A stretch of 64,000 bases of DNA. Source: a bacterium. GTDB lineage: Bacteria > Zhuqueibacterota > Zhuqueibacteria > Residuimicrobiales > Krinioviventaceae. This document shows, piece after piece, positions 23,727 through 50,249 of the stretch; within the stretch, counting starts at the first letter, position 1, and each line of letters begins with the position of its first letter. The notes below the pieces were generated by a model. That model searched no databases and had not been told where the DNA came from. It saw only the letters and a program-made list of their open reading frames with translations. The translations under genes were made by a program, and so were the position numbers. The stretch lies in the NCBI GenBank assembly GCA_963693055.1, contig OY843751.1, positions 2,176,001 through 2,240,000 on the forward strand, written 5' to 3'.

Positions 23727-23795
23727 GTGTCTATTGGTTTGGAATCCCCAATTAAACCCACGATGAAAAGTACAAAAATGAGATAAGGAAATCAA
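23727..23795 (-). promoter_or_regulatory. Array promoter + conserved leader (copy 1)
   Basis: Minus strand TTGATT-17-TACTTT, then GTGGGTTTAATTGGGG. Confidence 0.7.
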
Positions 23796-23860
23796 TGTTT
23801 AAATTGGAATAGATAAACAAAAGAACAACAGATTTTTGTTGTCCTTTTGTTTGGATTGCT

Positions 23861-25504
23861 CTAGTTTTTTATTTGGGCTTTTAAAACGTTAATTTCATTT
23901 TTCATTGCCAAGTTTTCTTTTTTTATCTCAATCATGTACAAGGTCAGCTCTTCAATCTTTTGTAATAATTTTGCCTGCATTTCACCCATATTCACACCAT
24001 TCTCTTTTGCCTCTTGCGCGGAAGGGATTTCGGGTAAGTGTTTATGTTCATTGATAAATGCTTCTGTCTCTTTAATGGACATGAGAGCGTAATCCTCTTC
24101 GAACACATAGTCCGGCAGGGCATCCTGCTGGAGTTTAATCTCTTCGGCTGTGATAATTCCACCAACACAAACGTCATTGCTGAATGTACCATTTCCATCA
24201 TTGTCGATGGATAGGCCTTCATCATCTCCGTCACCGGAAAGAAAATCATCTAAAACAATATTGTTTAAAAATTTCACTGAATTGTTATAATATGTGTTCA
24301 TTGGTAAGCCATTATAAATACCACGATCAACCCGGGTTGTTAAATACCTTACCCATCTTAATGCTTGGCTAACACCAATTGAGCCAAAATCAAATGTAAT
24401 TCTCCAATATTTACTTTCAGTGTGATCTAATTTGGGAATGATTACATGAGTTTGTCCATCTGGTATTGATACTGATACATCTTGAGTCCAGGATATTTTA
24501 TCAGAACTATATTCAATAGTAATATCATATCCTTTCTGTCCGTCTGGTACCCATTCCTGATATATGGCTAGCGCACCTCCACCCAACCAGGAACCAGCAT
24601 CAACAGTGAATCTGAATTTTGATCTTTCAGTGTTGACAGAATAGGTGGTACTAAAATTTCCATCTAACAGATATTGTAATTGGTCCGAATCAATAGTACT
24701 ACTTGTCCAGCTACCTGAGCTACTGGTTTCTACATCAGAATATTCTGCTCCTTGAAAAGCATCAGCCCAGCCAACAATTGATGAGGAAAAATATCTTCCA
24801 TCCCGCATATCATATGCATTAAATAATGTATAATCTCCCGTAAAACCCAGGCTGCTATTATTTGATTGGAGAACAATGTCATCCTTAACAAACAAATCAT
24901 AACCGAGGGTGACATTTCCATTGGTATCCTGTAAAAAGCCAAAGGTATTTCCACTTTGAGTTTTTATACCTATAGTTTGATATGCATCATTAATAGCATT
25001 TCTGCCTTGTATATAGCCTATAAAATTTGATCCGTCCTTTAAACCACCCATCATTACTGTTGCACTATCATTACTAAAGGAAGCCATATTAATATTTGCC
25101 CCTGCCTCAACATCAATAAAAAAAGTTGCAGATGATTTTCCAAAACCAACTTTATTCATAAAGTACGAATCATCATCTGAATGCAATTTGACTCCAATAT
25201 CCGAGGCAGAATCTTCAATATATAAAAGTCCATCACCAGCGGAGTCATTAAAAAAACGATGGGTTGTTTCCCCATTAGCATTTCTTAAAATCATAATGTT
25301 TGAATTTTGTTCAGTATTTTGAATTTCAAATTCATTGTTTGGCGAAACACCAATACCAACATAACCCGTCGTTGTAGTATTACCATTTATGTCAGTTTCC
25401 CAACTGTCGTTAGTCGTATCGTCAGCAGCTAACAATAAATCGGAATTAATCGTTAATATTAAAAATACATTAAATAAAACAATACATATTGTTTGCTTTT
25501 TCAT
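23861..25504 (-). CDS. Secreted fibre-like array protein 3
   Basis: Signal peptide, possible discoidin/CBM-like insert (LLDGNFSTTY..IEYSSDKISWT..KYWRITF), LPDYVF-type C-terminal domain. Confidence 0.88.
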   Translation of the reverse strand: MKKQTICIVLFNVFLILTINSDLLLAADDTTNDSWETDINGNTTTTGYVGIGVSPNNEFEIQNTEQNSNIMILRNANGETTHRFFNDSAGDGLLYIEDSASDIGVKLHSDDDSYFMNKVGFGKSSATFFIDVEAGANINMASFSNDSATVMMGGLKDGSNFIGYIQGRNAINDAYQTIGIKTQSGNTFGFLQDTNGNVTLGYDLFVKDDIVLQSNNSSLGFTGDYTLFNAYDMRDGRYFSSSIVGWADAFQGAEYSDVETSSSGSWTSSTIDSDQLQYLLDGNFSTTYSVNTERSKFRFTVDAGSWLGGGALAIYQEWVPDGQKGYDITIEYSSDKISWTQDVSVSIPDGQTHVIIPKLDHTESKYWRITFDFGSIGVSQALRWVRYLTTRVDRGIYNGLPMNTYYNNSVKFLNNIVLDDFLSGDGDDEGLSIDNDGNGTFSNDVCVGGIITAEEIKLQQDALPDYVFEEDYALMSIKETEAFINEHKHLPEIPSAQEAKENGVNMGEMQAKLLQKIEELTLYMIEIKKENLAMKNEINVLKAQIKN

Positions 25505-25552
25505 CAGAGCCTCCCCAAAAGTAGTATGAAATTGTAAGATTAGATTAAAAGT

Positions 25553-25619
25553 ATTTATTTGATTGAAATCCCAAATAAACCCACCATTGAAAAATACATA
25601 TAGATGTGATTTTATGCAA
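25553..25619 (-). promoter_or_regulatory. Array promoter + leader hairpin (copy 2)
   Basis: TTGCAT-17-TATTTT, then GTGGG TTTATTTG..CAAATAAA. Confidence 0.7.
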
Positions 25620-25642
25620 TCAAAAAAGTAGTACGTCGATGA

Positions 25643-25673
25643 GAAAGGGGACCAATAATTTTGCCCCCTTTTT
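25643..25673 (-). terminator. Representative intrinsic terminator between array units
   Basis: aaagggg..ccccttttt hairpin. Similar hairpins occur near 23820, 30370, 32135, 36195, 37855, 42065, 47075 and 48648, each between a stop codon and the next promoter or degenerate promoter. Confidence 0.7.
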
Positions 25674-25683
25674 TATTCAAATA

Positions 25684-48512: not shown

Positions 48513-48564
48513 GTTCGCCTCCCTAAATACATTAAAGAATTTGTGTAAATAGAATGATTAATGT

Positions 48565-48631
48565 GTTTATTTAATATACATCCCCAAATAAATCCTCGAA
48601 AGAATATAGATATATATTTTGAGTGAATCAA
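48565..48631 (-). promoter_or_regulatory. Array promoter + leader hairpin (copy 8)
   Basis: TTGATT-17-TATATT, then GAGGA TTTATTTG..TAAATAAA. Confidence 0.68.
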
Positions 48632-48695
48632 TGAATTGTTGAAAAGAAAAAGGGGAGACGTGGAATAATTTCTCCCCTTAATAGTTAATAGGATT

Positions 48696-49691
48696 TTATT
48701 TTGCAGAAATCATTTCTTTTAAACGATGATTTTCTTTTTCAAGTGAATCTACTTTTTTATTCACTTTTATCATGTGTATTGTCAGTTCTTCGATTTTTTG
48801 TAAAAGTTTGCTTTGCATTTCACTCACTTGCACACCGTTTTGCCGCATTTCCTGTACTGAGGGGATTTCCGGCAAGTGCTTGTTTTTCTGTATAAACTGT
48901 TCAACGTATTCAAGTGAAGGGAGCGCGTAATCTTTTTCAAAAACAAAATCCGCACCGGCGTCCACTTTGATGGTAATATCCCGTGCGCTGATTTTGCCGG
49001 CAACTGTGAGTTTCGCATCAGCATCAGGAGATGTAGTTGATGTTCCAATACAAACTTGTCCATCAGAATTAATTGAAATGCCTTCATCGTCGCCATCATT
49101 TGATATATATTTTGTGTTAATCTTTAAATTTGCACCAAATGCAATAGCATCAGGTGTTGCTGAGTTTTGTTCAAACCAGAAAAAACTTTTTCTGTATGTG
49201 TAATCGTCATTCATTGCCTGAAAATACAGATTACCTAATGTTGTGTTAATTCTCCAATTCTTTTGGTTAGTTGCGACATCATTTTCTTCAAATAATAATT
49301 CTGGACTATCTCCATAGACATGTAATAATGATTGCGGATTGGTTGTACCAATTCCAACTTGACCACTATTTTTTAGAAACAATGTGTTTTTTAAAATTCC
49401 ATCTAGTTGTGTTCGAAATTGTAGATTCAAGTTTGTGGTTCCAGATTCATCTCGTGCTTGAATAAAGGCAGTTCCGGAAGTACCCTCACCATTATAAGAA
49501 TACAAATAAATATGCCCTCTTCCGTAATAATCGCCATTTACATGTAATGATTTTTTGGGATTTAATGTCCCTATCCCAACACTACCGTTTGTAGTCGTTT
49601 CAACTGTTGTTGAACCATTCCAGTAATCTTTACTCATAGATTTATTGCTAAATAAAAATAAAAATGCAAATATCATAATATGCTGTTTCAT
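48696..49691 (-). CDS. Secreted fibre-like array protein 19
   Basis: Signal peptide, GSVGIGT repeats, conserved C-terminal domain. Confidence 0.88.
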   Translation of the reverse strand: MKQHIMIFAFLFLFSNKSMSKDYWNGSTTVETTTNGSVGIGTLNPKKSLHVNGDYYGRGHIYLYSYNGEGTSGTAFIQARDESGTTNLNLQFRTQLDGILKNTLFLKNSGQVGIGTTNPQSLLHVYGDSPELLFEENDVATNQKNWRINTTLGNLYFQAMNDDYTYRKSFFWFEQNSATPDAIAFGANLKINTKYISNDGDDEGISINSDGQVCIGTSTTSPDADAKLTVAGKISARDITIKVDAGADFVFEKDYALPSLEYVEQFIQKNKHLPEIPSVQEMRQNGVQVSEMQSKLLQKIEELTIHMIKVNKKVDSLEKENHRLKEMISAK

Positions 49692-49879
49692 TCATGTTCT
49701 CCTTATAAAATGAGATTTTTTATTTATTTTTTAAAAAAAATATGCAATTTGTATGGGAATCCAATAAATTTTAAGGAAATAAACTTAACTTTTTAAGCTA
49801 ATTTTTATAATTAATACGTGTTGACATTTTTTTCAAGAATGTAATATTTTAATTAACTTTTAAACGAACAGTTGTTGCT

Positions 49880-50142
49880 TTATCCAATACTGAGTTTTCC
49901 GCTTATAAACACATCTCCATCATTTCTATTTGAGATCTTCATTATCTCCATCATTAAACAGGTAATCCTGTTGAGAGATATGTTATCATCGAGTATAAGC
50001 ATATCTTCAGTATTGTTATAATTTTGGCTGTTAATCCTATTGCCGGTATTTTTTGCATTTTTAACAGCAATGAACAAGTTTCCCAATAAAAAAAAATGAG
50101 CAACAAAAATAATCTGCCAGTAAGCATTGCCATGTTTTTCAT
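49880..50142 (-). pseudogene. Truncated, frameshifted remnant of an array gene (paralog of gene 17)
   Basis: MKNMAMLTGRLFLLLIF compared with MKNLTMCTGKLFLLFF in gene 17. The fragment NDGDVFISGKLSIG follows in another frame. No C-terminal domain. Confidence 0.75.
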
Positions 50143-50182
50143 TGTACCGACTTAATTTTTTTATAATTGATTGAAGGAAAGT

Positions 50183-50249
50183 GTTTATTTGTTTTACAAC
50201 ACGAAATAAACCAATAACGAAATATACAAAAATAGGATAAGTAAATCAA
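50183..50249 (-). promoter_or_regulatory. Array promoter + leader hairpin (copy 9)
   Basis: TTGATT-17-TATATT, then GTTTATTT..AAATAAAC. Confidence 0.62.

Follow-up and report, generated by a model that had tools for sequence, protein, structure and literature searches.

A conserved palindrome in the duplicated promoter modules of a fibre-like gene array: more probably an operator than a 5′ hairpin

We analyzed a 64,000-nucleotide stretch of bacterial DNA (contig OY843751.1, positions 2,176,001 to 2,240,000), referred to in the following as the window. It holds a tandem array of 19 paralogous fibre-like genes on the minus strand (19605..49691), with one or three genes per promoter, and a palindrome that occurs nine times in this array, each time directly after a promoter-like site. 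The array proteins have a signal-peptide-like N-terminus and a variable, beta-rich, fibre-like body, followed by a conserved C-terminal domain whose last element is a helix; they are predicted to be secreted and tail-fibre-like. The latter label is based on matches to PHROG tail-fibre families for one of the eight array proteins tested, on the source names of several homologs (“tail fiber protein”), and on a weak Peptidase_S74 row (0.90) in an atlas. The homologs are mostly from Bacteroidota. Structure prediction of a fibre protein was poor (pLDDT 42 and 59), a fold search gave no match, and a PDB sequence search returned nothing significant. No close relatives of the array proteins were found outside this genome, where matches were mainly to the C-terminal domain; elsewhere in the phylum, one to four genes of the family were present in 19 of 166 genomes.

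The nine copies of the element, numbered c1 to c9, span 23727 to 50249 and all share the minus-strand orientation, as had been proposed in a sequence-only reading of this DNA. The palindrome is an 8-bp inverted repeat with the arms TTATTTG and CAAATAA (or a variant). When the 60 nt upstream of each arm were searched with the pattern TTG/TAG-N3-(16–18)-TA-N3-T, every copy yielded one match, always with the 17-bp spacing previously noted, and the TTATTTG arm followed 10–12 nt after the end of this site in all nine cases. Promoter-like matches are uninformative by themselves here, as 90 were found in 21000–40900 against 81 ± 10.5 in shuffled sequence. Candidate readings of the site as a sigma-54 promoter or as a Bacteroidota-type promoter were rejected on inspection against the consensus sequences. 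With the first base of the TTATTTG arm in brackets, the copies are c1, 23727..23795 (23755), the most diverged live copy, with one bulge and one U–G pair; c2, 25551..25619 (25578); c3, 30291..30359 (30319); c4, 36100..36168 (36127); c5, 37762..37830 (37790); c6, 41969..42037 (41996); c7, 46982..47049 (47010), whose promoter has the consensus TATAAT; c8, 48563..48631 (48591); and c9, 50181..50249 (50209), the first copy, which precedes a decayed fibre-gene remnant. The arms are separated by 11 nt in six copies and by 10 nt in three, including c2. The outer pair of the repeat is T..A in six copies and A..T in c3, c4 and c6, while the inner pair is mismatched in c4 and c8, as had been seen before, with G..T in both. 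Seven of the nine spacers open with GG(G)A, in agreement with the same reading; the exceptions are c5 and c9.

Each large gap in the array has the same order: terminator, promoter, palindrome, AU-rich leader and ribosome site. An intrinsic terminator-like hairpin lies upstream of c1 at 23823..23844 on the minus strand, and equivalent hairpins are found on that strand at 25647–25668, 30373–30398, 36199–36220, 37857–37878, 42067–42088, 47079–47102, 48652–48677 and 32139–32160. The last of these is the intact terminator of a decayed module (32040..32160, minus strand), in which the promoter and palindrome have eroded. Two degenerate versions of the element had been suggested, near 32050 and near 49760. 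The former can be recognized as a decayed module by its flank only, which is 80.6% identical over 93 nt to the upstream region of c5, the element itself scoring 4.3 bits (E 0.53); the latter scored 1–4 bits (E ≥ 0.5) and found no support as a copy. Judging from the promoter position, transcription probably starts at or near the GTGGG that precedes the first arm, and the promoters are presumably active. Since the flanking genes are paralogs, the nine copies are not independent, and the repeated gap module in a paralogous array indicates that they are duplicates of one module rather than dispersed sites of a regulon. The terminator–promoter–palindrome–leader module has thus been duplicated along with the array genes, an origin of the repeat that the sequence-only reading had overlooked.

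Duplication left the parts of the module conserved to very different degrees. Mean pairwise identity among the nine copies was 0.94 and 0.88 in the two arms, 0.81 in the −35 box, 0.75 in the −10 box and 0.74 in the six bases before the left arm, and only 0.45 in the promoter spacer, 0.43 in the last six bases of the palindrome spacer and 0.38 in the downstream leader. Because the arms are conserved above the promoter boxes, the spacer and the leader, we conclude that they are under selection, and the results support the presence of a selected cis-element directly after what appears to be a promoter of the sigma-70 type. A sequence-conserved inverted repeat just after the promoter, as expected of an operator, is present in all nine copies.

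The element appears to be restricted to this locus. The 6.5-Mb genome has five exact occurrences of the 7-bp palindrome with a 9–12 nt spacer, each of them in the array, and when the genome was scanned with a weight matrix made from the nine copies, these were the top nine matches (24.5–34.3), with the best outside match at 23.5. A pattern search, which recognizes only five of the nine copies, found the element in none of 166 other genomes of the phylum. The same pattern matched 45 times in metagenomes and once in viral sequence; 43 of these 46 matches were within open frames of at least 93 amino acids, and none was accompanied by the promoter pattern upstream or by a fibre gene at a distance of up to 3 kb. 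A covariance-model search of related genomes had been suggested as a check on the RNA proposal. In 124 genomes of the class it gave 11 matches in 10 genomes (E ≤ 0.1, 22–27 bits), about the number expected by chance and taken as such without inspecting them singly, and nothing fell below E 0.1 in a subset of 52 related loci that had been selected for their arrays and phylum homologs. A scan of the 64-kb window with Rfam at the gathering score likewise gave no matches. The element is lineage-specific, found in one array of one genome, and since it was not found in other genomes, the alignment cannot be enlarged.

We tentatively favour the palindrome being the operator of a putative dimeric repressor that co-regulates the nine transcription units. 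Such a repressor would bind two half-sites, predicted at about +4 to +30 with their centres 18–19 bp apart, and when bound would block initiation or escape, switching all nine units together. The comparison that points most clearly toward sequence-specific recognition is with the terminators in the same gaps. The terminator stems have diverged (identity 0.55 and 0.52) but remain paired in 61 of 63 cells, with double changes at six of seven pairs, whereas the palindrome has a double change at one of its eight pairs; the terminators drift and covary while the palindrome arms stay fixed. The stem that the palindrome could form is AU-rich, with a 9–11 nt loop and −3.7 to −9.3 kcal/mol, and the whole leaders fold no better than shuffled sequences (z −0.9 to +0.8). 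In eight of nine copies, the right arm stands at one and the same distance from the −10 box, the 10-nt spacers being compensated by one extra upstream base, which is a weak hint of a constraint at the DNA level, possibly from a single event. A similar known arrangement is CIRCE, the operator of HrcA, a repressor-bound inverted repeat with a long spacer beside the promoter (PMC12597100). The likeness extends to the half-site centres, which are 18 bp apart in CIRCE (9-9-9). The sequences are unrelated, however, and the CIRCE spacer is fixed at 9 nt, whereas here it is 10 or 11; there are also no chaperone genes here, no regulator is known, and the element is confined to its one array. No match to the CIRCE consensus was found at the array, and the only perfect site in the genome is elsewhere (G000:C1, near 1406497). 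CIRCE elements are frequently part of the transcript and can affect mRNA stability as well.

Several observations weigh against an operator. No transcription-factor gene was found in the array, and no regulator of the palindrome was identified. Of the nine next-best weight-matrix matches checked, eight are within long ORFs, so that a site for autoregulation is missing, nor was another intergenic site found that scored comparably. The palindrome spacer varies between 10 and 11 nt where an operator should have a fixed one, and it is the promoter spacing that is invariant. One pair has changed on both sides, and the single changes that preserve pairing are mostly G–U on the transcribed strand, 4–5 versus 1. 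The terminator control is itself imperfect, since a strong terminator can pass through more intermediates than a marginal RNA stem could, and because the terminators form two sub-families, their divergence is inflated. The operator, which the sequence-only reading had named as a fallback, is nevertheless slightly likelier than an RNA hairpin on the present evidence, and both could hold.

It is also possible, if somewhat more doubtful, that the element acts as RNA, either as a stem-loop that shields the 5′ end of the transcript against 5′-end-dependent decay of the RppH and RNase E/G type, or by presenting the stem and the G-rich edge of the loop to an RNA-binding protein. The element begins about 4–6 nt past the −10 box, 79 of 90 cells pair, and one pair shows a double change, while three vary through G–U only. 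The closing pair is G–U in six of nine copies, the consensus fold gains a G3–C35 pair near the predicted 5′ end, the mean probability of the core pairs is at least 0.7 in seven of nine leaders, and the loop varies in length. The genome has an RNase E/G gene, and RNase J was not found in it. A stem a few bases from the (here predicted) 5′ end is also what is seen in the stabilizing stem-loops of E. coli ompA and papA and B. subtilis aprE, but these act by their structure, whereas the array element has a near-fixed sequence and a weak, AU-rich stem; pairing at the 5′ end, the need of RppH for unpaired 5′ bases and RNase E are treated in PMC3997798. The covariation that was originally described came down to one compensatory pair in ten, common to the three related copies c3, c4 and c6, whose elements are so similar that the double change was probably one event. 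Six of 500 shuffles reached the covariation score, a borderline result from a control that ignores the relatedness of the copies. Nor did the G–U changes on the transcribed strand, previously taken to favour RNA, amount to a significant bias (binomial p 0.11–0.19). In addition, the G5 pair is lost on the transcribed strand in c7 and c8, and the leader of c4 favours a different fold (pair probability 0.02, with c1 at 0.33). Of 509 other promoter-like sites in the genome, 74 also have a stem of at least eight pairs after them, the sequence is more conserved than that of the terminators, and Rfam gave no match. Some predicted folds contain an anti-Shine–Dalgarno switch (c3, c4, c6 and c7), inconsistently among copies. 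A new class of structured RNA is not established on the present evidence. A more specific proposal, that the loop GGA, together with the GGAGG of the ribosome site, forms a target through which CsrA represses translation as it does for flagellin, seems very unlikely. The genome does have csrA, next to genes that we take to be flgL and fliW from reading their protein sequences (flgL–fliW–csrA), seven of nine spacers begin with GG(G)A, and CsrA–FliW control of flagellin likewise combines a GGA in a hairpin loop with a GGA in the ribosome site. The CsrA target consensus is A-N-GGA within a short hairpin loop. The flagellin leader of the same genome (locus L160, 1940–1980, minus strand) has the expected form, with a GC-closed stem, a six-base loop containing A-N-GGA and a second A-N-GGA at the ribosome site. 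The array loops differ from it in size and context: they have 9–11 nt and lack the A two bases before GGA, and c5 has no GGA. An A-N-GGA loop is present in none of the nine copies, and the suggested CsrA-type sites are not supported. A target for a NusG paralog of the RfaH, UpxY or LoaP type was also considered and rejected, as the genome holds one PF02357 match and no second NusG-family gene.

Two further explanations concern the history of the array. In one, the conservation would come from recent duplication or gene conversion, or from constraint on the initially transcribed sequence alone, and the symmetry would have no role. All copies are indeed paralogous and confined to one array, and gene conversion is evident in the coding parts, but both arms were kept, unlike the spacer tail that separates them (0.43) and the flanks (0.38–0.45), and conversion would have carried the spacer along with the arms; we consider this explanation improbable. 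In the other, the palindrome would be the site of a tyrosine recombinase by which fibre cassettes were excised, inserted or reordered, each carrying the promoter of the next cassette at its 3′ end. Flank relationships do break at the element, marking it as a crossover point in a way that had gone unnoticed. The upstream flanks group c4 with c6, and c1 with c5 and c9, while the downstream flanks group c3 with c4, and c7 with c9; c4 thus resembles c6 on one side and c3 on the other, and c9 is a hybrid of c1/c5 and c7. The upstream flank of c5 is 86% identical to that of c1, and the match stops in the spacer. Blocks on the same side are linked (r = 0.41–0.80 upstream and 0.61–0.79 downstream), whereas promoter and leader similarity are not (r = 0.03), the uncoupling amounting to about five pairs among nine copies. 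About 490 bp upstream of c9 there is a fragment of a tyrosine recombinase. The locus resembles integron attC arrays and the core sites of tyrosine recombinases in that tandem genes are separated by palindromic repeats, the array is headed by the remnant of a recombinase, and flanks are swapped at the repeat. Tyrosine-recombinase sites share a 6–8 bp overlap, and attC has a two-box fold. Here, the nine spacers all differ in sequence and come in two lengths (10–11 nt), with no shared overlap, and there is one short stem, placed after the promoter at the start of each unit, in an array composed entirely of paralogs. The recombinase fragment is 100 aa long and covers profile positions 76–168 of 172; it matches XerA/C/D models better than integron integrase, and by inspection lacks the integron-specific insertion; six other tyrosine recombinases are encoded elsewhere in the genome. 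The three intergenic homology blocks that end in the element (c1/c5, c3/c4 and c4/c6) do so at differing edges. Ordinary homologous exchange is common here, the conserved coding C-terminus being where the majority of the array's homology blocks stop, and detectable crossovers in the gaps must fall at the element, the only sequence shared there. With the spacers all different, passive homologous exchange is the simpler reading, and a recombinase site is accordingly unlikely. We regard as no more probable an integron-like array, in which cassettes of one or three genes with a 3′ terminator and the next promoter were reshuffled by a now-broken recombinase; if it were true, reshuffling would change which receptor-binding fibre is supplied most strongly to the neighbouring T2SS-like and Rhs delivery system. 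No joint between two element copies was seen in contigs from three runs of one sample covering 21000–40900; copy c6, located beyond this range, accounts for a contig joint from 37200 to 36102.

As the longest sequence that the otherwise diverged gaps have in common, the element probably also acts as a passive crossover point in the duplication or exchange of units. Long duplicated blocks of 83–87% identity were found at 27618–29235 and 42178–43791, and at 36317–37251 and 40478–41415. These blocks span parts of neighbouring fibre genes and show mosaic exchange via the conserved C-terminal domain.

The surroundings of the array look like a genomic island. To its left, on the plus strand, are an operon resembling a type II secretion system (T2SS) or type IV pilus (T4P), with GspE, a secretin, PilN/O/P, pilins, GspF and a prepilin peptidase (1812..12176), and a set of Rhs genes encoding a 1704-aa Rhs-repeat protein, a 169-aa ORF and an Rhs-core protein (12410..19088). 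The Rhs system is divided among these three genes, the Rhs core and a variable tip being in their own 335-aa ORF, and across the array from them is another Rhs-core ORF, an orphan (55674–56666). An IS transposase (21424..22230, plus strand) is inserted between the last two array genes and has severed the last one (19605–21240), which has a 567-bp internal duplication and a frame break. The recombinase remnant is a C-terminal fragment at 50743..51045 on the minus strand, interrupted by an IS3-type element (51177–52293). Farther out, the window contains an OmpA-family protein with 69-bp TSP3 repeats (62160–63770), and just left of the window, two tandem DUF1670 genes (locus L192, 18139–19771) adjoin a restriction-modification and HerA region.

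Arrays of “tail fiber protein” genes in Bacteroidota offer a comparison for the locus as a whole. They belong to the same protein family, and in several loci have GspF, pseudopilin and Rhs/DUF6443 genes as neighbours, but the eight large arrays inspected are packed like one operon, with gaps mostly of 0–40 nt, and lack the module. Two or more fibre genes were present in 33 of the 71 loci fetched, and T2SS-like genes were found in the fetched flanks of 6 of the 17 loci with at least four fibre genes, compared with 4 of the 54 others, related loci among these not being independent. With as many as 16 genes in 20 kb, these arrays are located within or next to the same T2SS/T4P-like cluster; such loci are L024 (followed by a DUF6443 gene), L025, L026, L045, L028, L087, L067 and L035, and in L083 the fibre array is followed by Rhs and DUF6443 genes. 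In another genome of the same family as ours, this T2SS-like operon is also present, with a sigma-54 activator and two sets of Rhs genes after it (loci L154–L157; G004:C25, 14642–45491), and no fibre array was found there. Tail-fibre repeats and Rhs proteins are listed among the features of polymorphic toxins in the part of PMC3482391 available to us, which uses “T2SS” for Sec-dependent export and does not describe a locus of fibre array, T2SS-like and Rhs genes; a literature search at the level of titles and abstracts found no description of a fibre array in a T2SS-like locus beside Rhs genes. The T2SS-like, fibre and Rhs genes may together constitute a conserved delivery system.

Taken together, the palindrome is a real, selected cis-element in a duplicated promoter module, with an operator as the most likely function and a 5′ hairpin as a possible one. 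Nine promoted units would here take the place of the single long operon of the Bacteroidota arrays. As an operator or as a 5′ hairpin, the element would provide a testable case of how an array run as one operon can be turned, in another lineage, into nine co-regulated units that each have a promoter. The surrounding system may be the more important part, since fibre arrays in T2SS-like loci beside Rhs genes recur in Bacteroidota.

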